Positions 33,696-47,964 are shown, numbered from the stretch's first letter. The stretch: 64,000 bases of DNA from Nitrospirota bacterium (GCA_963710375.1 CAVPZX010000002.1:288001-352000), one strand, 5' to 3'. The notes: generated by a model from the letters alone, not told the origin. Made by a program: numbers and translations.

Positions 33696-35894
33696 TTATA
33701 ACATCGGCGGCATTTCTAATGCCGGATGCGAAACTTTTGTGAGATACTCCAAAAGTTTTTCCGAATCCTCGCAGATAGTATCGTCAGCTATCTTATCAAG
33801 CAGATCCGGGACCCCCTCTTCAGCAGCCCTCTTTTTGAATGCCTCTCCAATCCTTTCTTTAAGGGATGCAGGCATCCAGACTATCCTCTTTATTCCGCCA
33901 TCGCCGAAAAGGAACTTCCTGCTCGGAATGAAGTTCACTCCGATGCCCATGAATCCAGGGGTTTGGGCGCCACCTCCGACCGAGCCTGCGAATGTCGAAA
34001 ACTTCATGCCGACAGGCGTCATTCCCTGATGACCTCTGTGCACAATCATAACTCCGTTTGCCTCGGGGATGATTCCGACTATGCACTCGAAGCATCCGCA
34101 GGAGGTCATCGGATTGTCCATGATGGTGTACATGTTTACGGATTCGACAGCACCGCCGGTGGCCTGTTTAACATAATTATCCACACCCTTAAAGCGCCCT
34201 AATTTAGCATCGATCACTTCCTCTTTCTTGATAGGCTGGTTTCCGCCTGTAGGGTCTATTTCTTTTGCCGCTTTGCAGTCAAGCCAGTTGAATGCGCCGC
34301 AAAGCCCAAGCCTTTCAGGAGACACTACGCAAATATGGCTCGGAGCAAAAGACTGGCAGAGAAGGCATGAATAAAAATCTTCCACTGTTTCGTCAGTCAG
34401 ACCTCCCAGTCTTGCATCGCGCTCTGTATATGCAGCCCTTGCCTCCTGCAGCTTTTCATTAACTTCATTCGCATCCAGGTATAACGTAACCTGGGCCTTG
34501 TCAACAATGGATTTAAATCTGTGATGTGCCATTGTGGTATGAATAATGCCCAGATGCTCCAAAGTGAATCCCGCCTGCTTGGCCGCGTTGCTTATCCTTA
34601 CCCAGTTGACATCTCTCTGACCCATGTGGAATATTCCCTGGGCCTCGTTGAGGTCTGCGTGGATCTTCCTCTCGAGAACAGATTCAAAATCCTTTTGCAT
34701 CTTGCGGCCGGCAACTTCTATAACGATACCAAGAGGCATCCTGCCGCCCTTTTCATATATCTCTTTCCAATTGTCGGGCTTGATAATGACCTTGTTGTCT
34801 TCTACCTCGTCCATTTCCCTCATTCTGACCCATTCGAATGCGGGTGTTTTCTGGCCGCCCATTTCCGCAAAGGTATCTTCCTTCCTTATCCTCTCGCCCT
34901 CGAATGCAGGCCCGAATGCAACTGGAATTGGAGGCTTCTCAACGGTAATCTTGAGTCCTCTTACCTCGATTGCCTTCTGGACGATCTTGGCATGGTCGAA
35001 TTCCTTATCGACGTGCTCATATGTGCAAACTCCTGTCGGGAGAATGGTCGGAACATCAGTATCGCAAACAGCAGGGAAGCCCATGTTGATAGCGCCGGCG
35101 CCGGTTGCCCACTTTATGTCATCCATTGGGCCGAGAGCTATCGCAAATGCAAAGACCCTGTCTTTCTGGTAAAGGAGATGTCCCTTGTAATCTCCGGGTT
35201 TCTTGCCGCCGAATATGAGGGAGGCCCTTATCGCCCAGTCTGCAGCATAAAGAATATGCTCCGTATCAGGGCCCAATGGTACGATTCTGGCATCCCAGCC
35301 TAGTTCTATATTCTTCCTGAGAAGCTGTTTAGTCATGCTATCGCCATTTGACTGACCTGCAAGGAAAGTAAGTATGTTCTTCTCTTGAAGCTCCCTGGCT
35401 ATATTCACAGCAATGTCGTCGGTGGGAGCCGCTCCGAGGATACAGGCAAATCCCGGCATCGTACCGTCAACGAGTTGGATGCCCAGGTTTCTCTGGATGG
35501 TATCACCTATAAACCCATTGTACACATATCCCGTTTCAGGGTCCTTGCACGGCTCGAGGCCGTTGACATACCTGAGCGCAAGAATTATCTCTTCCGCAAA
35601 AAGTGTAGCCATGCCGCTATCAAGAGTCTCGCCGAGATAGGGGAGCCAGAGCTTATCTGTGGGCTCATCATGAAGCAGCTCCTGGGCATAACGAAGTCCA
35701 ACCTCCATATCTCCGAGCGTTTTTACCTTGAAAGTGGTCATTGCAAGTATCATGGGAAGCTGAAAAGCGGTGTCAGGAAACTCAAAAACATAATCTTTTC
35801 CCTTTTCAGCTATTGTCTTTTTAAGCATTTCTTCCGCGCGGTTCACGAGTGAACGTGCGCCCCTAATAGCCGCTGTTGCAATAATCTTTGACAT
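33696..35894 (-). CDS. acsB: Acetyl-CoA synthase (bacterial type)
   Basis: FPDTAF.LP N-terminal domain; CLLCQSFAP.H.C, GLCGA and TSCGCFEC A-cluster motifs. Confidence 0.97.
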   Translation of the reverse strand: MSKIIATAAIRGARSLVNRAEEMLKKTIAEKGKDYVFEFPDTAFQLPMILAMTTFKVKTLGDMEVGLRYAQELLHDEPTDKLWLPYLGETLDSGMATLFAEEIILALRYVNGLEPCKDPETGYVYNGFIGDTIQRNLGIQLVDGTMPGFACILGAAPTDDIAVNIARELQEKNILTFLAGQSNGDSMTKQLLRKNIELGWDARIVPLGPDTEHILYAADWAIRASLIFGGKKPGDYKGHLLYQKDRVFAFAIALGPMDDIKWATGAGAINMGFPAVCDTDVPTILPTGVCTYEHVDKEFDHAKIVQKAIEVRGLKITVEKPPIPVAFGPAFEGERIRKEDTFAEMGGQKTPAFEWVRMREMDEVEDNKVIIKPDNWKEIYEKGGRMPLGIVIEVAGRKMQKDFESVLERKIHADLNEAQGIFHMGQRDVNWVRISNAAKQAGFTLEHLGIIHTTMAHHRFKSIVDKAQVTLYLDANEVNEKLQEARAAYTERDARLGGLTDETVEDFYSCLLCQSFAPSHICVVSPERLGLCGAFNWLDCKAAKEIDPTGGNQPIKKEEVIDAKLGRFKGVDNYVKQATGGAVESVNMYTIMDNPMTSCGCFECIVGIIPEANGVMIVHRGHQGMTPVGMKFSTFAGSVGGGAQTPGFMGIGVNFIPSRKFLFGDGGIKRIVWMPASLKERIGEAFKKRAAEEGVPDLLDKIADDTICEDSEKLLEYLTKVSHPALEMPPML

Positions 35895-35950
35895 CTCTAA
35901 AACCTCCTGGCATTAATTTATTCAATTTTGAAAACAGCTTCTACTCTCTG

Positions 35951-37288
35951 TTAACGCGACCTCAAGAAAACCGGCAGCCCGTTGGCTTCCCTTGGGCCGA
36001 CAGTGATCTTCCAGCCCGGAAGCTTGTCTTCAATCGAACCACTCAGTATTGCCACGTACCCTGGAATGATCAGCTCCTTATGGCTTATCTCATTCTCCAC
36101 TCCGCATTCCTTGATGAATGCAGCAACCTTTGATGCGTTGAATTTACCGGCGGCCCATCCGGTAAGCACTGATAGCCCCTCGGTATCAAGCACAGCAAGC
36201 CTCACAGGGACCTTGCTGCCTTCGATCTCTCCTGAGACAATAAAATATGTAAGAGAGAAGTTTGAGGTGATGAGCAGCGGGGAGTCTGCAGTCGGCTCGC
36301 CGATTTTATAAACGTTCTGCGGGACCTGCAGCGGGACCTGAGGGTCAGTATAGATATTCTGCCTAAGGGTGAACAGCGCAAGGTTCTTCCACTTGTCGAT
36401 GCTGCTCACAACCACGATAGACGAATATTTTGTAATTCCGAGGGCTGCAATAAGAGTCTCCAGCATGACATCATCTCTTTGTGCAAAGCTGATTACAGGG
36501 AACCCTACCGACTTATTGCCTTTCTTAACCGCTGCCCTTCTGATATAAGTATTGTCCCGCAGCATCTCTTTGGCAGTGCGTGCGCCCGAGTCAATGACCA
36601 TGTCCTCAACACCGAGCCCTTTAATCTTGTCCGTAAGTGCTGTCAATGCGTCAAGCCCTTTGGCAACTACTCCGAGAGAGACCTTATGGGTCTTTGCAAT
36701 ATTCGCCATCTGATCGGCGTTGGACTCGTTTGCTCCGTAAAGGAGCGGCTTCTTGTCTGCTACAGCCTTGACAGCTGCCTCTGCTGCAGCCGGATTTGTC
36801 GTGGAAAGTATCAATGGCACTGCTGGAGCTTTGGCAGCGATAGCCTTTACAACACCCTCAAATTTTCCTGCGTCGCCCGATACATTATTAATAAATATCG
36901 CGTTAACCCTGAGCTTCTGACCAACTCTGTCTATTTCCGAATTGACGACTTGATCTGTTAAGCTGTTTATTTCACTGTCGGACATCGAATCTTTTATTTC
37001 CACAGCTATAGCACATGGGTTAACAAACTTCTTGTCATGCCTGAACAGGACAGTTTCTTCGCCCATTTTTACTGCCTTGTCTCCCACTCCGAGTGTAATG
37101 GGTCTTATAGGAGGAGCAGACGCCTCACCGAGGACCTTTTTAGCCTCTTCCGAGACATCGGGGCACAAATCGAGAGAAGCCTGTCTCTGGGCCAGTTTCA
37201 TTGCAAAAGCAAGGCATGTCGGATGTCCGCATTTCTTGCAATTGGTTTTTGGCAGCAACTTAAATATCTCAACGCCGGATAACGCCAT
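35951..37288 (-). CDS. acsC: Corrinoid Fe-S protein large subunit
   Basis: LPKTNCKKCG.PTCLAFA, NIYTDPQ.P, TEGLSVLT.WAAGK and GPREA motifs. Confidence 0.97.
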   Translation of the reverse strand: MALSGVEIFKLLPKTNCKKCGHPTCLAFAMKLAQRQASLDLCPDVSEEAKKVLGEASAPPIRPITLGVGDKAVKMGEETVLFRHDKKFVNPCAIAVEIKDSMSDSEINSLTDQVVNSEIDRVGQKLRVNAIFINNVSGDAGKFEGVVKAIAAKAPAVPLILSTTNPAAAEAAVKAVADKKPLLYGANESNADQMANIAKTHKVSLGVVAKGLDALTALTDKIKGLGVEDMVIDSGARTAKEMLRDNTYIRRAAVKKGNKSVGFPVISFAQRDDVMLETLIAALGITKYSSIVVVSSIDKWKNLALFTLRQNIYTDPQVPLQVPQNVYKIGEPTADSPLLITSNFSLTYFIVSGEIEGSKVPVRLAVLDTEGLSVLTGWAAGKFNASKVAAFIKECGVENEISHKELIIPGYVAILSGSIEDKLPGWKITVGPREANGLPVFLRSR

Positions 37289-37299
37289 TGTAACCTCCC

Positions 37300-38238
37300 T
37301 TACATTAATTCATCTATGAATTTTTCTATTGCCTTAACTGACTCAGGATGCCTCATGATCAAAAGCTCTGAGCCGGCAAGCATGAGTGCGCCCGCTGTCA
37401 GAGTTTCCCATGCAATTCCTCTCGGCTCAAGAGCGCCGCCTACAGGAAGTTCGGCTTCGGGAGCACTGGACTCCTTGACCTTCCAGGCATACATACCGAT
37501 ATCGCCCAGCATCGGTGTCTGCATCGTTAGGTCATTCTGGGTCAAGGCAGCAAGCCTGATTCTCTCCATGACAGAATAAGTATAGTCCAGCCCATATCCG
37601 AGCGCAGAACACATAGGATCAGTTACCATCCTCTCCTTGTCAAAGCCCATTTGCGTTATCAGGATATTGAGCTGCTTGGAAAGATTGATATCGAGCTGAG
37701 ACATGGCTATAAGCTTATGATCGTTGGCCATACAGGCAGCAACGATTGTTTTGTAGTTTTCTTCCATGGCCTTACCTATGAAACAATTCCTGCCCTTGGC
37801 TGCTTCAGCCGCAGCGACCAAGACCAACGTATCTTTCTCAATATTGTTGCTGCCGAGGATTATTAAAGGGACTTTTACTGCGGCAAGCACATCCTTTACT
37901 GTCTTCGCAGCGTCTTCGGCGGAGCGGTTTTCCCTGTCGGGATGGGTCCCTATCAGCCTGAGTGCTATCGCCTTTGCATTCAGTTTGTCCTCGCAATATT
38001 TTGCCCATGTTACAGGATCACCAGATACTCCTTCGTACACTTTTTTTACAGTATCCGGCCAATCATCAGGAGGGACATCCTGAATCTCATAAGCTATGAC
38101 GGGTCTGTTGGGAACATTCCCTTCAAATGCATCAAAAGGAAGCACATTCTCTCCACCAATAACAATCGTCTTATCCGTACCGCCTTCAACTTGATAAACC
38201 TTTCCAGAATAAGTCTCGTTTGGCGCCGTAAATGCCAT
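37300..38238 (-). CDS. acsD: Corrinoid Fe-S protein small subunit
   Basis: GGE..LPF..FEG, DINL.KQLNI, ALGYGL.YTYSVMER and RHP motifs; GGAGG SD before 38238. Confidence 0.95.
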   Translation of the reverse strand: MAFTAPNETYSGKVYQVEGGTDKTIVIGGENVLPFDAFEGNVPNRPVIAYEIQDVPPDDWPDTVKKVYEGVSGDPVTWAKYCEDKLNAKAIALRLIGTHPDRENRSAEDAAKTVKDVLAAVKVPLIILGSNNIEKDTLVLVAAAEAAKGRNCFIGKAMEENYKTIVAACMANDHKLIAMSQLDINLSKQLNILITQMGFDKERMVTDPMCSALGYGLDYTYSVMERIRLAALTQNDLTMQTPMLGDIGMYAWKVKESSAPEAELPVGGALEPRGIAWETLTAGALMLAGSELLIMRHPESVKAIEKFIDELM

Positions 38239-38298
38239 ATATACCTCCATTTTTTAGTCGCCCGCCGGTAGTTTCTTGTATCGACCGTTGACAGTATT

Positions 38299-39081
38299 TT
38301 ACATTTCCAAATACGAATGGGCATAAAGGGTCCTGCCCATTATCACATCTATCGTCTTTGTAGTTTCCATTACCTCATGAGCATCGGCGATTGCAGCAGT
38401 CAGTCCTTCATACGCCAACAATGCGAACAAATATTTATTCATTATAGGCCTGAGGGCTTTCGGCATCCCGTTGGATATATTACTTAGTCCCACCACTGTC
38501 TTCATTGGAGGATCGTTCAGTTCCTGAAACATCTTGACCGCTTTAACTACTTTTAACGCCTGGTCCTGAGTAGTAGCGATCTGCAGAACAAGCGGGTCGA
38601 GATACAGGTCTTCAACCGGTATGCCGTATTCCATTGCCCTCGCCATCATCTCTGCTGCAATACCTGCCCTTTCCTCAGCATCAGCAGGAAGGCCGCCTTT
38701 GCCGACAGTAAGTGCTATTAATTGCGATTTGTATTTCGCGGCAATTTCCATGATAGGAAATCTTTCTGGATCGTTAGAAGTGGAATTAATCAGCGGCCTG
38801 CCCCATTGGCTGTTGTGGACCTGCAGCCCGGCCTCGATAGCCTTGGCATTCGTAGTGTCAAGACAGACAGGAAGGGGAACAACTTCCTGAATGGTTGTTA
38901 CCATCCACTGCATCATTTTTTCTCCGCCATCCTCCGCCGGGCCGATATTGGCATCAATCATGCCGGCGCCTTCTTTCCATTGTCTCGTTGCAATTTCCTG
39001 AATAGGCCCTTTGTCGAATTTCATCATTGCTTCACGCACTCTTTTAGCTATGATGCTGAGCTTCTCACCGATTATTAGCAT
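38299..39081 (-). CDS. acsE: Methyl-THF:corrinoid Fe-S protein methyltransferase
   Basis: IIGE, DANIGP, CLDT, LINS, LDPLV and GLSNISNG pterin-binding motifs; located in the acs operon. Confidence 0.92.
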   Translation of the reverse strand: MLIIGEKLSIIAKRVREAMMKFDKGPIQEIATRQWKEGAGMIDANIGPAEDGGEKMMQWMVTTIQEVVPLPVCLDTTNAKAIEAGLQVHNSQWGRPLINSTSNDPERFPIMEIAAKYKSQLIALTVGKGGLPADAEERAGIAAEMMARAMEYGIPVEDLYLDPLVLQIATTQDQALKVVKAVKMFQELNDPPMKTVVGLSNISNGMPKALRPIMNKYLFALLAYEGLTAAIADAHEVMETTKTIDVIMGRTLYAHSYLEM

Positions 39082-39209
39082 ACTATCTCCTTTCAAAAAT
39101 GGCGCTATAAAAAGACATGTTACGGATAGTAACATAGCAAAAATAAAGATGTCTATTAGTTCTTCTTTATAACCTTATAATAACTGTTTATTTTATAACA
39201 GCCCACGAA

Positions 39210-39977
39210 CTATGGAATATTTAATGACGTCAAAATACCGAACAGCGCCTGAACGGATTTCGATTCTTCAGGAAGCTTTAATACAGGCTTCCCCTCAAGG
39301 TCAAATTTAAAAATCGCCTCATCCTGCGGGACGAGGCCGGCTACGGTAACACCTGCCTTCTCGGCCATCGTCTTAAGGTCTTCCCCCTCGTATCCGATCA
39401 CCCTGTTGATGATCAGCACCCTACGGTCCACCTCGAGATGCAATTCCTCAACAAGGTTATTGATCCGCTCTGCAGTCATCACGCCTTTCACCGTAGGGTC
39501 GCTGACAATTATAAGCACATTGACTTTGTGAGTGGTCCTCCTGCTCAAATGCTCCATACCGGCCTCGTTGTCGATCACAACGTACGGATACTTCTCAGAC
39601 AGCAGATCGGTGTACTTCCTTATTATATTATTTGCCGCGCAGTAACAGCCGGGACCCTCGGGCCTCCCCATGACCATGAGATCAAACCCTTCAGCCTCGA
39701 TAATCGACTGCTGCACCTGATAGTCGAAGAGCTGCTCCATCGCCATTCCGCCGGGCCTGCTGCCGCCTTCCCTCACAGCCTGTAGAGACTCTTCCCTGAG
39801 ACTGCCGATAGTTGCGTGGACCTCGACTCCAAGCGCCTCGTTCAGGCACGCATTGCTGTCTGCGTCAACCGCGAGGACCGGCCCCTTTCTTTTATCAAGC
39901 AGGTATTTCACAACCAATCCTGCCAAGCTTGTCTTCCCTGTGCCGCCTTTGCCTGCAAAAGCAATAGTAAACGCCAT
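39210..39977 (-). CDS. cooC: CooC/AcsF nickel-insertion ATPase
   Basis: AGKGGTGKT, GPGCYC..N and DNEAGMEHLSR motifs. Confidence 0.92.
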   Translation of the reverse strand: MAFTIAFAGKGGTGKTSLAGLVVKYLLDKRKGPVLAVDADSNACLNEALGVEVHATIGSLREESLQAVREGGSRPGGMAMEQLFDYQVQQSIIEAEGFDLMVMGRPEGPGCYCAANNIIRKYTDLLSEKYPYVVIDNEAGMEHLSRRTTHKVNVLIIVSDPTVKGVMTAERINNLVEELHLEVDRRVLIINRVIGYEGEDLKTMAEKAGVTVAGLVPQDEAIFKFDLEGKPVLKLPEESKSVQALFGILTSLNIP

Positions 39978-40672: not shown

Positions 40673-43141
40673 TTAGATTTTAAATTCTTTTACGACATTT
40701 TGCAGCTCTGCCGATACACGCTCCAGTTCCCCCGCTGTCTGGGTAGTCTGCGCCATACCGCTGGCAAAATCAGCCGCAACATTGGAAATGCCTCTTATGC
40801 TGGCGGTTATCGACTCGATAGTTGATAGCTGCTCATGAGACGCGGTAGCTATATGTGCAACCATTTCAACTTCTCTGTCGATGCTCTCCACTATTTTGTG
40901 CAACGCTTCGCCTGCTGTATGGGCATAACTCACTGCTGAGTCTACGTCATGCAATCCTCGTCTCATGGCTACCACCGCCTTTTCGGACTCGGACTGGATG
41001 GCGGTTATCATATCCGTTATCTCCGTTGTGGCAGCAGCCGTTCTTTCCGCAAGCTTTCTAACCTCGTCCGCAACAACTGCAAATCCCCTGCCCTGCTCTC
41101 CGGCCCTTGCAGATTCGATTGCGGCATTGAGCGCAAGCAGGTTCGTCTGATCGGCTATGTCTTTGATGACCGATACGATCTCTCCGATCTTTTCCGACTT
41201 GTGCGAAAGATTTTCTATAATTTCGGCCGCATTCTTTACGGTTACCGATACGTTCTTGATGCCTTCCGCAGCCTGAACAACCACTTTGCTTCCATCTGTC
41301 GCTATAGTCTCGGTCTCTTTTGCAAAGGAAGCAGTGGAATGCGCGTTTTCGACGACGTCCTGGAGAGTTGTTGACATCTCCTCGGCTGCCGTCGAAAGGG
41401 TGTTCACTTCGCTTGCCTGCATGTTCGCCCTTTGCGAAAGCTCCTCGGCAGTTGCAGACAATTCGTGAGCCGAAGACGATACGGCATTAGTTTTTTCAGA
41501 TACGGTTGAGACGGATTTATGGAGTTTTTCGACCAGCACGTTGAAACTTTCGCATATCAGTCCAATCTCATCAGCAGACTCCACCTTTAATCTCTTAGTC
41601 AGGTCGCCTTCTGAACTCGCGATATTTCTGATCATCTCTTCTGTGTTTTTCAGCGGCCCCGAAACGCTCCCAATGGTTCTCCAATTCAATACGAACGTTA
41701 TAAGGATTATTATGCCGGACAGAACAAGCATCAAAGTAAGCGACCCCCTGACAGAACTATTCACGCCGCTTACTACTTCCTCCTGCTTCTGGGTAATATT
41801 CCTTACCTGCTCTTCGCCGTGGCTGCTCTGCTCTTTGGTAACATTTTTAATCATGTCTATAGTCTTCAGCATGGCTGCATCACTTTCCAGCACGCTCCGC
41901 TTAGCCCCCAGAATATTTGTCATCGAGCCCTGGACCCTTCTGACCAGCCCTGGCAGCACATCGGCGCTCTTCGCTATTGCAGTCTGTCCCATCTGGACAA
42001 GCACCTTCTTCATCCTTTCGCCGTCTTTCAGCATCTGGTCCTCGATCCTCCGCGTGTCGGAAGATATTCTGTCCAGCTCTGCATCGGATGCGCTGAGCAT
42101 GATAAGGCGCATTTTGGCATCAAGCTCCTTGACATCGATACTCAAAGAGCTGCCGATACCGGTTATCTGGTTTGCGCTCTTTTGGAAATCCATGGAACGT
42201 TCCACATTCTGTCTGTCCTGGACAACCTGCAACTCATATGAATCTATGGTCTCGGATATCTTGGCATTCAGGGTATCTATCGCATTCAAGATATCACTCT
42301 TGAGATTGAGATACTGACCCTCCACATCCTGGCCCTTCAGGATATCCGCCCTCAGTGCGACAAGCCCCGACCCTTCACGGGTGATTTTTTCGTAAAGGCC
42401 CTGCGAGATATCCTTAACCTCTTTGATTATCGGGGGATCGCCCTTTTCATATTCAACGTTCTGAACCGAATCGGCAAGAGCCTTTAACCTTTCCTTTACA
42501 GGATTCAGCTTGAATCTGTTTTTTATTGTCTCTACTTCGCCGGCAACCGCGCCCATATCTTTGATCCGCCCCTGAATGATATACAGCTTTTTAATAGTAC
42601 CGTTCAGCCTGAGATTCAACTGCTGCGCATCACGGAGAGCATTTTCAGCATTCGTATTCAGACCCGTGATACTGTTCTTGATGCCTGTAATAGCTTCGTC
42701 CTCTTTTTTTAACGCGTCCCCTACATTGGCGGATTCGGTCTTGAACAGGGCCATATCTTTAAGCCTCTCCTGGACCGACTGGATTATTGTCTTATGAATG
42801 TTCTTGAAGACACCGGTATCAGCGACAGATGCGTTCTTATCGAGGCGTTCAATATCCGCTTTTGTCGTCTCAAAAGATTTTATATGGTCGTTTATCCGCC
42901 CTGAAATGCGCTCCACCTCGGCAGAGTCGGTCAACATGCCGAGTCTCAGAAAATCAGCGGAGAGCCTTTCAATTGTCTGCTGGAGTTCCAGGGTCTTCAC
43001 CTCGAGAGGTGTCGCTTTTGCGGTCAGACTGTCCAGGCTTGCCTTTATCTTGAGAATTCCGTATGTTCCGATTGCGACAATAAATACGATCCCTAATGCT
43101 GTAAACAAAGCATTGCCTATCATCTTCTTCTTAACAGTCAT
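40673..43141 (-). CDS. Methyl-accepting chemotaxis protein with a very large periplasmic domain
   Basis: Two TM segments, HAMP (GDLT.RL...DEIG), [38 protein letters not shown]. Confidence 0.96.
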
Positions 43142-43186
43142 TTCCTCATCCCCTCAGATGCTTATGATCAATGCGCCTATATCGCT

Positions 43187-44341
43187 CTAATTGCTGATCG
43201 TTGTTATAGGGACAATTTTGCCGTCCTTGATCTCGGTCAGAAACACCGTATTGGATGCCTGATGGTTATCCTTTCCGAGACTGAGCACCATTCCCCCTAT
43301 ATCCACATTTTTCATGTCTTCAAATGCATTTATCAATCCATCTCTCGTCAGGTCCTTGCCGGCCTTTTCTAGCGCCATGCACATTACTTTAGCGGTTATG
43401 CATCCTTCCATGTTCACAAAGCCCGTTTTTTGATCAGGAAAATACTTTGTGATCAAGGTGCCGCATTCCTTGATAATAGGGACCGATGGATCCTCTGGGA
43501 AAGGAACAACCTGCGATATCACTACTCCATCGCCTTCCTTACCGACAGCGCTTACGAGATCATCAGTGCCTACAAAAGACACCGTGGCGAGATGGGCCTT
43601 CAGGCCGTCTGTTTTCGCCTCCTTGATAAAGACGCCAATAGGAGAGTAAGGACCCACCATAATGACAACATCAGGATTCGCCGCCATCACCGATGCGAGG
43701 CCCGTTTTTACGGCAAGGGTATTCCTCTGGAATGTCCCCTTTGCAACTACATCAAGGCCGCGCTTTTTGAGAGCCTTTTCGGTCCCCGAGAGCACAGCTT
43801 GTCCGAACCCGTCATCCTGATAGAAAACAGCAAACTTCTTTGCACCAGTGTCTTTGACAAAGTGTTCAATGAGCATCTCCGGCTCATCGTTGTAGCTGGC
43901 CCTTATGTTTATTATCTCGTGAGTTACCGGATTCCTTAATGTCATTGCACCTGTAAACAGACCTACGAGAGGGACCTTGTCCTCCTTTACTATCGGGATT
44001 ACAGCGTTTGCAGTCGGAGTACCGACATACCCGAACAGAGCGAAGACTTTCTGCCCCTCTATCATCTTCAAGGTCTGATCGATCGCCTTGTCAGGCTCAT
44101 ATCCGTCGTCAGCTACAACAAGATTTATCTTCCTGCCGAGGATACCTCCCTTTGCATTTGCCTCTTTGAAAAAGGCCTCAGCTCCAACACGCATCCCATT
44201 ACCCAATCCTGCAGCCCCTCCGGTCTGCGCATTCACCATTCCGAGTTTGATCTCGGTGTCAGTGACTCCATCGGCAGCATAGAGTCTATTTGCAACAACC
44301 ATAGCACTGATGAGTATTAAGAATACAAGAAACTTCTTCAT
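43187..44341 (-). CDS. Periplasmic solute-binding protein (LivJ/PBP type 1), no permease adjacent
   Basis: Signal peptide; GG..GRKI.L...DDGYEP, GYVGTPT, RASY..E and ISQVVP.P motifs. Confidence 0.9.
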   Translation of the reverse strand: MKKFLVFLILISAMVVANRLYAADGVTDTEIKLGMVNAQTGGAAGLGNGMRVGAEAFFKEANAKGGILGRKINLVVADDGYEPDKAIDQTLKMIEGQKVFALFGYVGTPTANAVIPIVKEDKVPLVGLFTGAMTLRNPVTHEIINIRASYNDEPEMLIEHFVKDTGAKKFAVFYQDDGFGQAVLSGTEKALKKRGLDVVAKGTFQRNTLAVKTGLASVMAANPDVVIMVGPYSPIGVFIKEAKTDGLKAHLATVSFVGTDDLVSAVGKEGDGVVISQVVPFPEDPSVPIIKECGTLITKYFPDQKTGFVNMEGCITAKVMCMALEKAGKDLTRDGLINAFEDMKNVDIGGMVLSLGKDNHQASNTVFLTEIKDGKIVPITTISN

Positions 44342-44668
44342 ACGTCCTCCTTTCGTTGCATTTCATGCCGGACGAAAACCTTCCACAGGCATTGCGGATG
44401 CCGGCTTCGTCCATATTTAGAAATGCTGTTCGTTACGATAGATGTTTTTCCCATTGGAGACATACTGCTTTCGTGACGGTTGCCAAGAAACATTTGAAGA
44501 TACTTCTCCACTCATAAACTTGAGTATTAAATACTTATACAAATCAAAATGTCAACGCCTCGTACAACTCTGTGTCAAGCCAATTTAAAAATATCCGGAT
44601 TTACGCTTTCGCTTTCCTCTCCATTTGCCACGGCTAAATGTCTAACCATCAATCGAGTTAATCATCAA

Positions 44669-44683
44669 GCAAGGACTGTGCCA
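44669..44683 (-). promoter_or_regulatory. Sigma-54 (-24/-12) promoter toward the SBP-MCP operon
   Basis: Minus strand reads TGGCAC-AGTCC-TTGC, an exact consensus. Confidence 0.85.
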
Positions 44684-44744
44684 GACGACACAATGTAGTA
44701 TCTTTTTGATTTATTGGGATTTCTGAGGAATGGGATACATCATC

Positions 44745-44865
44745 AATGTGGATTAATTCCAATGTCTGTGGAAAGATTCCATTGGATAACAAGAAACTCG
44801 AAAGCTTTTCGATGATTAATCATAATTATGTATTTTTTTCATCGACATTGGAATTAATCCACATT
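44745..44865. promoter_or_regulatory. Putative enhancer (UAS) boxes TGGA-N5-TCCA
   Basis: Perfect 22-bp inverted pair at 44745-44766 and 44844-44865, plus a third box TGTGGAAAGATTCCA at 44767. Confidence 0.7.
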
Positions 44866-44927
44866 CATTAATGAAAAACATTCCTCAGAGATCCTAATAA
44901 ATCAGGAAGTTAATACATTGTATCTCT

Positions 44928-44942
44928 TGGCATAGTCCTTGC
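44928..44942 (+). promoter_or_regulatory. Sigma-54 (-24/-12) promoter toward the gene at 45043
   Basis: TGGCAT-AGTCC-TTGC; IHF-like AATCAGGAAGTTA just upstream. Confidence 0.85.
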
Positions 44943-45042
44943 TGCATCATTAAATAATCATAAGATGCAGCAGCCGATGACCCAAAAAGTATGAGTGTTT
45001 TATCGGATAGGCAATATCTTATACGACACATCTGCCGGTTAA

Positions 45043-47883
45043 ATGATAGAGGGGAGGACAGTGGAGACTGTATTACATAAATATGATTCCACAATATTAT
45101 CCGACAATCCCGAGGTTCTCAGCAGGATGAATACATCATACTTGGGCAGCTATATTCAGCGGGAAGTGCCGGATGCCGGGAAGTATATACAGCAGGCTCT
45201 GGCAATACAGGCCTCCCTGTTCGAAAAGGGAGAGCGCAAAAACATCGGTCAGATCATGACCGAAAACGGGTGGATCGGCAATGAGGAGCTTCAGCATTGC
45301 CTTGTCCGGCAGCTGGAGGACCGGCTTGCCGAGATTGAGCTTTTCGAGACCGTACCGTTTGATGTGCTGATGCGGCTGGCCCGCGAATCACGCCAAATAT
45401 CGGTACCTCCAGGAAACGTCATTTTCAACAACAACGACAAAAGCGATAGTTACTTTATAATCGTTTCGGGCAGGGTCGCCATTTCAGACCATGGAGAGGA
45501 TGGAAAGGTCGAAACGACCGCAAGTCTCGGGCCTGGTGATTGCTTCGGTGAGATGACTATGCTCGCCGGCAAGGGAAGCAGCGCAAAATTCACCGCAGAG
45601 GAGAATACGGTGCTGATATTGATTCCGAAGCCGGCCTTCGATTTGATACATGGAACCGGATCTACAGTTTCTCAAGGGTTTATCCGCATACTTGCCGGGC
45701 GACTTATGAAAAGCGCCAACTGGATTTCTGAGGTCAAGGCGGACGAAGAGGCGTACCGTCAGTTTATCGCTGAACAACTTGGAAAGAACGAGCCATCTAT
45801 TATAGGAAGCACGGCAGTAATAAAAAAAGTGCTTGCAGATATAGAGCGGGTTTCTGAAGGCAGCGGGCCGGCGCTGGTGCAAGGCGAAAGCGGAACTGAA
45901 CTCTGGGATGCGGCAGCGCTTATACACAAGAAAAATCGCGAATCAGGGAAGCTCTTGACCTATGATGCAAGGCGGAAGGGTACAGGCTATCGGTCCGGAC
46001 CCTATGAGCGCCGCAGGCAAAGTGATATGCTGAGCCAAATGAGCACCCTGTTCGGGAGGGCTAACTCCATGCAAGCTGAGGAGGGAGGGCGCATCGGACT
46101 CCTCCAGATCGCCGATGGCGGTACTCTGGTCGTTGAACATGTCGAAATGCTCCATTCAAAGGTCCAGCAGAAACTGGCTGAACTTATTGCTACAGGCAAA
46201 TTCCAAATACCCTTTGATAATACAATGCAGTCATCTAGTGTACGTTTGATATTTACTACAAGCGCCGACCTTGCGAATATGGCGGCGAATGGCAACTTTG
46301 ACACAAAACTTCTTGATCTCATAAGCCGGAATATTATCACTTTGCCTGCGCTCAGGAAAAGAAAAAAGGATTTAAGGGAAATAGTCGCTCATATTATAGA
46401 AAGGAACAATCGGCAACTGGGTATGGCCATTGAAGGGCTGGATGATTCTGCCTACAAGGAGATCATGGCCTCTGACTGGCCCGGGAATAGTGAGGAACTC
46501 AACAACGTCATAAGACGCGCAATGATGCTCTGCCGTGACAGAGCGCTGTCTGCCGAACACATCTTCCTGAGTTCTCCTCCGGTCAAAGGACAGGTCACCT
46601 TTGACCTCTTCAAGATTTCCACTGTTAAGGATTTTTTCCTCAACAGCGGTTTTTTTACGACCGCACATTTGGTTATTGCGTCATTCATAGGGATCATCAT
46701 CGTCAGCGGCCTGTTCGGGAACCAGGACCCTGCCAAGAATGCAGCGATCGTTCTTACCTGGGGTTACTGGGAGCCGATTTTCGTGCTGAGCACCTTTTTC
46801 TTCGGCAGGTTATGGTGTGGTGTATGCCCCATCGGCTCGACAATTTCTTTCATCAGCACAAGGGTTGGACTAAAGAAGAAGATACCTCAGTTGCTCCGCA
46901 ATTATGGGATCTATCTCAGCGCGGCAGGAATTGCCGCCATATTTTGGGCCGAGTCTATATCGCACATGGTCATATCTCCAAAGGCGACAGGTCTACTGGT
47001 GCTGACGATATCGCTGTTGGCTTTGTTTACAGGCATGCTCTTCGATCGAAGAACCTGGTGCCGTTACCTATGCCCTATCGGTGCTATCGCCGGATTCTTT
47101 TCAAGTTGTTCGGTAACAGAGCTACGGTCAAATTACAATATCTGCAGTGAGGACTGTATTAAGCACGATTGTTATGTCGGCAATGAGAAAGCAGCAGGAT
47201 GTCCTTTATTTCAGGGACCGTTCTCGCTGAGGACCAACAAAGACTGCGTTCTCTGCGGCAACTGCGTCAGGGCATGTCCGAAGAATTCGATAGCCCTGAA
47301 CCTCCGCATTCCGGGACAGGAACTTTGGGCATCATACCAGATTGAAAAGAGCGCCGTGATTATCTGTTCTACAATGCTCGGCACGCAATTATTCCGTGGT
47401 CTCGAGCATGCCGGTGTCTTCGGTGTGCTTACCTCATCAGACATGTGGTGGCTATGTGCCGCAACAGCGATTCTGTCACTTACGCTTGGCGTTATGGCAG
47501 CTGCAGCCGTCATTGGAAAACTTGTCTTTCCAGTCAGCGATGAGTCTGGCGGGGAAATGTCACGCATCATATACTCCTTCATTCCGCTTTCGTTTTCCTT
47601 TGAGATAGGTTATCACCTGCACAGGATGCTAACGCTTAGCGGTATTTTGCCGGATGTTATTCTCTACCAACTTTTTGGTAATGACAACTATTCGATAAGA
47701 CCGGTCGTAAGTGCTGGTGGCATCAAGACGCTGCAGGTCATTATCATGCTGATCGGCCTAGCCGGCAGCGCCTACGTTGCAAGGCGCATGACAAGTGGCA
47801 TCAGTTCGCCGGAACGGTTTCCAATATGGCCGGCGTTTGTCCTTAACGTTATCCTCACCAGCCTGTTTCTTGCATTTAAGTAA
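45043..47883 (+). CDS. Multidomain membrane sensor: MshEN-like + cNMP-binding + degenerate sigma-54 AAA + NapH/NosR-like polytopic Fe-S domain
   Basis: IGQIMTENGWI....LQHCLVRQ; LGPGDCFGEM; QGESGTE...WPGN without GAFTGA; WCGVCPIG, WCRYLCPIG and CVLCGNCVRACP with many TM segments. Confidence 0.8.
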   Translation: MIEGRTVETVLHKYDSTILSDNPEVLSRMNTSYLGSYIQREVPDAGKYIQQALAIQASLFEKGERKNIGQIMTENGWIGNEELQHCLVRQLEDRLAEIELFETVPFDVLMRLARESRQISVPPGNVIFNNNDKSDSYFIIVSGRVAISDHGEDGKVETTASLGPGDCFGEMTMLAGKGSSAKFTAEENTVLILIPKPAFDLIHGTGSTVSQGFIRILAGRLMKSANWISEVKADEEAYRQFIAEQLGKNEPSIIGSTAVIKKVLADIERVSEGSGPALVQGESGTELWDAAALIHKKNRESGKLLTYDARRKGTGYRSGPYERRRQSDMLSQMSTLFGRANSMQAEEGGRIGLLQIADGGTLVVEHVEMLHSKVQQKLAELIATGKFQIPFDNTMQSSSVRLIFTTSADLANMAANGNFDTKLLDLISRNIITLPALRKRKKDLREIVAHIIERNNRQLGMAIEGLDDSAYKEIMASDWPGNSEELNNVIRRAMMLCRDRALSAEHIFLSSPPVKGQVTFDLFKISTVKDFFLNSGFFTTAHLVIASFIGIIIVSGLFGNQDPAKNAAIVLTWGYWEPIFVLSTFFFGRLWCGVCPIGSTISFISTRVGLKKKIPQLLRNYGIYLSAAGIAAIFWAESISHMVISPKATGLLVLTISLLALFTGMLFDRRTWCRYLCPIGAIAGFFSSCSVTELRSNYNICSEDCIKHDCYVGNEKAAGCPLFQGPFSLRTNKDCVLCGNCVRACPKNSIALNLRIPGQELWASYQIEKSAVIICSTMLGTQLFRGLEHAGVFGVLTSSDMWWLCAATAILSLTLGVMAAAAVIGKLVFPVSDESGGEMSRIIYSFIPLSFSFEIGYHLHRMLTLSGILPDVILYQLFGNDNYSIRPVVSAGGIKTLQVIIMLIGLAGSAYVARRMTSGISSPERFPIWPAFVLNVILTSLFLAFK

Positions 47884-47964
47884 CCTGCCTCTGCCGGTCC
47901 TTTCCTTACGCCTACTCCAATTGCTTTTGATTACCAATGCCGATGAGTTAAAATAGAGGTTGCT

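Follow-up and report, generated by a model that had tools for sequence, protein, structure and literature searches.

A four-module membrane protein with a degenerate sigma-54 activator domain and a putative c-di-GMP input in a Nitrospirota bacterium

The gene at positions 45043-47883 (+) of a 64,000-nt stretch of Nitrospirota bacterium DNA (the window) encodes a protein in which an MshEN-like N-terminus, a cyclic nucleotide (cNMP)-binding fold, an AAA+ domain of the bacterial enhancer-binding protein (bEBP) type and a membrane iron-sulfur (Fe-S) module follow one another. This four-module architecture was confirmed in the present study. Tentatively, the protein is taken to be a membrane Fe-S electron-transfer protein controlled by cyclic di-GMP (c-di-GMP) and not a transcription factor. 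A wider proposal, which we regard as doubtful, would describe the whole family as a bEBP chassis made non-transcriptional, with swappable inputs (MshEN, cNMP, GAF, FHA, REC), a dead AAA+ switch and a membrane Fe-S output; the MshEN clade would gate electron transfer by c-di-GMP, paralogs responding to c-di-GMP and to cAMP would share the task between them, and copying of a promoter cassette would have brought the c-di-GMP version into a motility regulon. No paper on the family, its MshEN clade, the paralog split or the regulon context was found in the literature searched, most subscription journals lying outside that search.

Domain architecture and the putative nucleotide-binding N-terminal half

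The open reading frame (ORF) comprises 946 aa and is unbroken in five variants of 81-100% identity. Since four close homologues (81-86% identity) start at the position matching M29 (nt 45127, giving 918 aa), the first 28 residues may be untranslated; an alternative GTG start at 45061 is preceded by a purine-rich stretch. The host genome measures 3.19 Mb, and the nearest homologues of the protein are labelled Nitrospirae. Pfam searches returned cNMP_binding (120-200), Sigma54_activat (253-425), AAA_lid_14 (438-507), Fer4_5 (twice) and Fer4, and matched neither HTH_8 nor MshEN. Of the profiles named for checking in an earlier interpretation by a model (the sequence-only reading), cNMP_binding, Sigma54_activat and Fer4_5 were thus recovered and MshEN was not. 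The AlphaFold model (mean predicted local distance difference test score, pLDDT, 79; predicted template modelling score, pTM, 0.54) places, after disordered residues 1-30, helices at 34-97, a cNMP barrel, a 40-residue helix, the AAA+ domain and a helical membrane part in this order.

At the N-terminus, two 24-residue motifs stand in the MshEN register at aa 33-56 (45139-45210, +) and aa 67-90 (45241-45312, +), separated by 10 residues instead of the usual 5. Motif 1 retains L34, G35, I49, L53 and Q56, with Tyr in place of Arg and a degenerate middle; motif 2 retains I68, G69, L83, L87 and Q90, with Asn in place of Arg. The Gly, Leu and Gln positions that touch c-di-GMP are among those retained. 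The two motifs, their Leu-Gly pair, the LxxxLxxQ pattern and four predicted helices (34-97, pLDDT 78-88) are shared with the MshEN_N receptors Vibrio cholerae MshE, Thermus thermophilus PilF and PilB, from which the protein differs by the replacement of both arginines, the longer spacer and a score under the cut-off of NCBIfam NF053729. Its architecture is absent from the MshEN_N architectures given in Supplementary Table 4 of PMC5013675.

Against the PDB, a profile of 13 family N-termini reached E 2.5e-9 to 3e-8 with PilF and PilB, and 1e-3 with V. cholerae MshE (5HTL). Four PPR-repeat rows above PilF/PilB were rejected as summed-repeat artefacts, as no single stretch was significant. A 40-sequence N-terminal profile also matched a CheA-MshEN and a stand-alone MshEN protein of the genome. 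A loose tandem MshEN pattern, drawn up from the family alignments of this analysis itself, occurs in three of 19,079 six-frame genome ORFs, namely the protein studied here and two PilB/MshE-like proteins; the relaxed motif of PMC5013675 matched none of 40 family N-termini, motif 2 of the present protein being off at one position. Both MshEN glycines are invariant in the 13-row alignment. Homology of the N-terminus to MshEN is established on the PilF/PilB/MshE profile matches, as had been proposed from two degenerate motifs with the key Arg replaced.

For the analysis of the family, 193 distinct full-length relatives (at least 780-790 aa) were pooled from several searches. A FastTree phylogeny of the core gathers every one of the 62 MshEN-labelled rows in a single 68-row clade (support 98), and the label, which stems from a profile trained on 40 of the same rows, changes 6 times compared with a shuffled mean of 53. 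We read this as one probable gain of MshEN followed by losses. Both glycines are kept in 54 of the 68 clade members.

Binding of c-di-GMP by the MshEN-like N-terminus is plausible. According to Wang et al. (PMC5013675), changes of Arg9 alter c-di-GMP affinity less than fivefold and changes of glycines or hydrophobic residues weigh more, and the GSPII-B domain of PilF needs no arginines for binding, which improves when the first residue is hydrophobic (PMC11731258); binding therefore need not disappear together with the first Arg. The genome holds 12 GGDEF matches. Likely c-di-GMP receptors in the same genome are a stand-alone 81-aa MshEN_N protein (C1:31601-31846) and a CheA with MshEN motifs (C2:69691-71838).

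The cNMP domain noticed earlier was recovered at aa ~100-205 (45340-45657, +) with PF00027 (E 3e-18) and with Z ~16 to CNB domains in structure comparison; to this the present analysis adds that the phosphate-binding (cAMP) Arg is replaced by Ser179. A same-genome paralog at C3:107085-109847 (L001), 40% identical, has lost the MshEN glycines and kept the cAMP Arg, while the protein and its four close relatives, a clade of five, show the reverse. In the clade as a whole the Arg is kept by 42 of the 68 members: 30 keep MshEN and Arg, 24 MshEN only, 12 Arg only and 2 neither. The orthologs of the C3 paralog in genomes G004, G006 and G007 are convergent to a NiFe hydrogenase operon.

The disabled AAA+ domain and the membrane iron-sulfur module

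A predicted 40-residue linker helix (aa 207-246; 45661-45780, +) leads from the cNMP fold to the AAA+ domain and lid (aa 253-507; 45799-46563, +). The AAA+ model superposes on NtrX with Z 28.2 and a root mean square deviation (rmsd) of 1.9 over 243 residues, and NtrC4 and DmpR also reach Z ~28. The AAA+/lid fold is that of the bEBPs (NtrC1, NtrX, DmpR, FleQ; PF00158 with PF25601; Z 27-28, rmsd ~2 Å), in which an N-terminal input domain is likewise joined by a long helix. The protein differs from them in having lost the catalytic and sigma-contacting motifs. With a genuine bEBP of the same genome as reference, Walker A GK is changed to EL (286-287), Walker B DE to EH (E365-H366) and the sensor II Arg to E484, two arginines of the arginine-finger stretch are D420 and L426, and the GAFTGA loop is replaced; the C-terminal helix-turn-helix (HTH) is gone, and the membrane module comes after the lid, in the output position. 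The earlier claim that the domain is without Walker A Lys, GAFTGA, a normal Walker B and HTH was borne out by this alignment and by the missing HTH_8 match.

Among the 193 family members, neither a GAFTG-type loop nor a Walker B DE was found in any. Because these motifs are lost in 193 of 193 members and no HTH is present, the protein is predicted to be unable to activate transcription, in agreement with the sequence-only reading. Judged by its motifs, it is not a sigma-54 activator, and the whole family is predicted to be catalytically dead. The Walker A Lys is retained in 109 of 131 non-MshEN members versus 22 of 62 MshEN members; many family members may still bind nucleotide, and the protein at 45043-47883 probably does not. 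A GAFTGA-defective bEBP homologue within a sigma-54 operon is likewise described in Desulfovibrio vulgaris (DVU2960, with GAFPGA), which did not bind the upstream DNA of its operon (PMC4641369); it is an analogue only, likened by the GAFTGA defect and the sigma-54 operon and not by domain architecture.

Records of the family come from Nitrospirota, Thermodesulfobacteriota, Cyanobacteriota and Chloroflexota. No sigma-54 was found in any of the five cyanobacterial carriers examined, in agreement with PMC3162934 and PMC2853384, and their top activator-domain match is the family protein itself (E 1e-12 to 5e-18). Work with sigma-54 is thereby excluded as a shared family function, and the earlier suggestion that the protein sequesters a true activator is not supported as a role of the family. 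One family member (L133) lies on the Aulosira plasmid AP018309.1 (69455-80495), where it is annotated as 'nitrogen assimilation regulatory protein' and has cysteine synthase, petC and a disulfide oxidoreductase as neighbours. A sulfur link considered on account of this plasmid and DVU2960 was dropped, since it did not recur in the neighbour scan.

The membrane module (46645-47874, +) has about nine predicted long helices (about six by hydropathy alone) and, modelled by itself, reaches pLDDT 88 and pTM 0.88. All 118 aligned members share the same twelve cysteines. Of the CxxxCP motifs reported before, the second stands (C673, C677; residues 673-678; 47059-47076, +), and the first proved to be CxxCP (C592, C595; residues 592-596; 46816-46830, +). 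The C-terminal 4Fe-4S motif is likewise present as one canonical motif, but eight cysteines (701, 705, 710, 720; 735, 738, 741, 745), all invariant, lie in this ferredoxin-like loop (47143-47280, +) and suffice for two clusters, so 2 x [4Fe-4S] is predicted.

The best NCBIfam match of the module is NapH (TIGR02163; E 8e-14, 51.8 bits). NapH/MauN, NosR, RdhC (PceC) and YccM also carry two Cys-Pro motifs in the initial helices and, behind them, a ferredoxin loop for two clusters; electron transfer by NapH and NosR depends on their cysteine motifs (PMC5928378). The present module differs from NapH-type modules by its CxxCP first motif (two CX3CP in NapH), the 3-4-9 spacing of the first cluster, five more helices, the absence of nap/nos neighbours and a score of 52 against a cut-off of 213 bits. 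A profile of the module finds 894 representatives at E<=1e-30; its plasmid matches are NapH, YccM and unnamed 4Fe-4S proteins, and its structural neighbours in the Atlas include clusters with Caa3_CtaG, COX2 or NosL domains. PDB fold searches with the membrane model gave nothing at E<=0.001 in one case and a best Z of 7.7, to helical bundles, in the other, which does not establish a new fold. With no solved fold to match it, the module is a target for structure determination.

The inputs of the family were surveyed in 30 of 150 listed matches, picked for unusual length or layout. Among these 30, the AAA+/membrane core also occurs with cNMP+GAF (5), FHA+GAF, HisKA+REC and AIM24+cNMP, and the membrane module is found alone or fused to cytochrome c or HATPase_c_2. 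As the inputs are interchangeable on a fixed core, the membrane module is suggested to be the family output; the alternative inputs are typical bEBP input domains, which places the module in the output position of the HTH. HisKA-REC, FHA-GAF, cNMP-GAF-GAF or AIM24 inputs and the cytochrome c/HATPase_c_2 fusions are seen in the variants P0104, P0178, P0070, P0158, P0162 and P0187. In metagenomes, a single-protein scan found no relative, and an alignment scan found relatives of up to 56% identity.

Proposed signal path and alternative explanations

In the mechanism we tentatively favour, c-di-GMP would bind the MshEN four-helix bundle, and the cNMP fold, its arginine gone, would serve as a relay. 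The 40-residue helix would hand the signal to the dead AAA+ domain, which may have retained only the oligomerisation and the conformational switch of a bEBP. This switch would alter the exchange of electrons between a partner and the quinone pool, for which the two pairs of cysteines and both Fe-S clusters would be the route, a step modelled on the reported role of NapH/NosR modules. In this lineage, the gene would have been put under a sigma-54 motility and surface regulon.

Several observations weigh against this mechanism. The N-terminus scores 18.3 bits with NF053729, below the cut-off of 38; motif 1 combines its degenerate middle with the 10-residue spacer; and in the GSPII-A domain of PilF small deviations abolish binding (PMC12002112). 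Clade-wide, retention of MshEN does not preclude retention of the cAMP Arg (30 of 68 keep both). The membrane module stays far below the NapH cut-off, and only its first half is NapH/NosR-related, the five-helix extension that follows being without a NapH counterpart. No napG/napA-type partner was found among the window ORFs or the scanned neighbours, and no conserved redox partner among 98 of 122 listed neighbours scanned, which are heterogeneous. The survey of homologue neighbourhoods proposed earlier thus brought up no conserved partner gene, the recurring neighbour clusters reflect clade synteny, and with unconserved neighbours no redox partner can be named. Finally, membership in the regulon is lineage-specific and may be incidental to the islet in which the gene lies.

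The direction of signalling could also be the reverse, with the Fe-S module sensing quinone or oxygen redox and the cytoplasmic half acting as an output scaffold for a motility, chemotaxis or nucleotide-signalling partner. This would fit an AAA+ domain without any remaining catalytic function, a gene sharing its islet with a chemoreceptor, and its place in a set of chemotaxis/motility cassettes to which hemerythrin and CZB chemoreceptors also belong. It is nevertheless rather unlikely, as the exchangeable N-terminal domains serve to receive ligands or phosphoryl groups and are not outputs, no partner gene is conserved, and the membrane module is also found alone or with cytochrome c.

Less probable again is that this copy has a vestigial cytoplasmic half and a membrane module that works by itself, constitutively. 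More has been lost here than in most relatives (the Walker A Lys, the cAMP Arg, both MshEN arginines and the otherwise conserved loop-1 PF motif), but the ORF is intact in the five variants, the AAA+ fold is predicted confidently and the MshEN Gly and Gln residues are kept. A shade weaker is a role of the module in metal (Cu/Fe) reduction, delivery or transport under signal control instead of respiratory electron transfer. The Caa3_CtaG, COX2 and NosL domains among the Atlas neighbours, five extra helices that could form a transport path and the lack of a matching solved fold would suit it; against it, no metal-uptake genes recur among the neighbours, a likeness to FtrD is no more than presumed, and the plasmid matches are NapH, YccM and unnamed 4Fe-4S proteins.

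If c-di-GMP control of electron transfer holds, the motile-sessile decision would be linked to respiration in anaerobes. Should the MshEN clade bind c-di-GMP, it would be an effector of new architecture, and a path from this second messenger to membrane redox chemistry could be tested in Nitrospirota and sulfate reducers. Hundreds of family proteins are labelled 'sigma-54-interacting transcriptional regulator', which inflates activator counts even in sigma-54-free cyanobacteria.

The promoter cassette and the genomic islet

The sigma-54 promoter that had been noticed before the gene was found again as a perfect -24/-12 consensus at 44928-44943 (+), now accompanied by an enhancer-like double site (44828-44863, +; core 44848-44863) and by an integration host factor (IHF)-like site (44900-44912, +; one mismatch to the consensus), which is highly conserved among cassette copies. 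A mirror-image leftward promoter has a perfect -24/-12 site at 44668-44683 (-) and an enhancer-like double site at 44747-44782 (-), so that the two sigma-54 sites stand back to back within a near-palindromic intergenic region with arms of 75 and 41 nt. With its consensus, palindromic upstream sites at a fixed distance and a sigma-54 gene in the host genome beside 21 canonical activators, the element is predicted to be an enhancer-dependent sigma-54 promoter.

Enhancer, IHF-like and sigma-54 sites form a cassette of ~130 bp, of which 27 distinct copies were found in the genome with a profile built from four copies; examples are window 44828-44943, C1:105689-105827, C8:179659-179794 and C2:822447-822580. 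Among 39 strict sigma-54 sites, 25 have an enhancer-like word with <=3 mismatches, 21 of them at 64-65 nt, and a random control gave 13 of 4,000 positions. The spacers of the copies are homologous too (mean 65% ungapped identity), which points to spread of the cassette by copying; several copies share a leader of up to ~60 nt. In D. vulgaris, the DVU1063 sigma-54 regulon (12 operons; PMC4641369) likewise has a common enhancer motif ahead of numerous motility and surface genes; the present case differs from it in that the whole cassette including its spacer is homologous. The 27 copies would illustrate regulon growth by copying of a whole enhancer-promoter unit. A small regulon specific to the locus at 45043-47883 was considered and dropped once these copies were found.

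Most of the copies precede genes for chemotaxis, motility, pili and signalling. Behind 14 of the 26 other copies stand genes of the chemoreceptor, che, motor or pilus groups, a PilZ protein being counted among these 14. The targets comprise six chemoreceptor loci, CheV, CheY, a CheR operon, MotA, FliL and a PilZ/YcgR protein; PilC with pilin, a secretin, four kinase loci, a REC activator, a glycosyltransferase, TpsB, DegP and hemerythrin; and a binding protein, one ORF without assignment and one decayed copy without listed ORF. CZB chemoreceptors belong to this set as well.

In a single-copy search, which yields lower bounds, 1-3 cassette copies were found in five of nine same-genus genomes, some at non-orthologous sites, and none in 31 other genomes. 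Upstream of homologous genes, a perfect sigma-54 site was found in 0 of 87 cases and a one-mismatch site in 1 of 87; at 35 metagenome loci of homologues, none had a site within one mismatch and none a cassette. The putative promoter is thus a local acquisition, and its absence upstream of homologues removes the supposed paradox of an incapable activator expressed from a sigma-54 promoter. It is very unlikely that the dead AAA+ domain exerts negative feedback by poisoning a true bEBP, such as the activator of the cassette, or by tethering it at the membrane, since its closeness to the bEBP fold, the genomic sigma-54 with 21 activators and the bEBP-type enhancer are set against lost inter-subunit arginines, homologues that are not under sigma-54 promoters and the cyanobacterial carriers described above.

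Behind the leftward promoter lies a periplasmic binding protein gene (Peripla_BP_6; 43187-44341, -); a methyl-accepting chemotaxis protein gene occupies 40673-43141 (-). The flanking HAD phosphatase and trmFO genes are adjacent in genomes G007 and G006, where the intervening DNA is absent; chemoreceptor, binding protein, double promoter and gene together therefore form a 7.2-kb islet (40682-47923). At E<=1e-60, none of the nine same-genus genomes yielded the islet binding protein. Directly left of the islet, window 33696-39977 carries what we take to be an acetyl-CoA synthase/corrinoid protein cluster of the Wood-Ljungdahl type.

Five activators resemble one another in the HTH recognition helix and may be the proteins that read the cassette, and REC activators adjoin cassette copies at C5:492032-493456, in an arrangement conserved in G005 and G008, and at C2:65652-67016. 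The copy at C8:35740-35872 (L003) is decayed, with a mutated -24 element; the opposite strand there carries a gene for an exported protein very rich in cysteine, and a cytochrome c peroxidase-like gene that seems to be frameshifted. An activator without N-terminal domain, presumably similar to FleQ/FlrA, heads a flagellar cluster (C8:206120-207151), and two strict sigma-54 sites in flagellar operons (C8 170412 and 194846) stand without a cassette.

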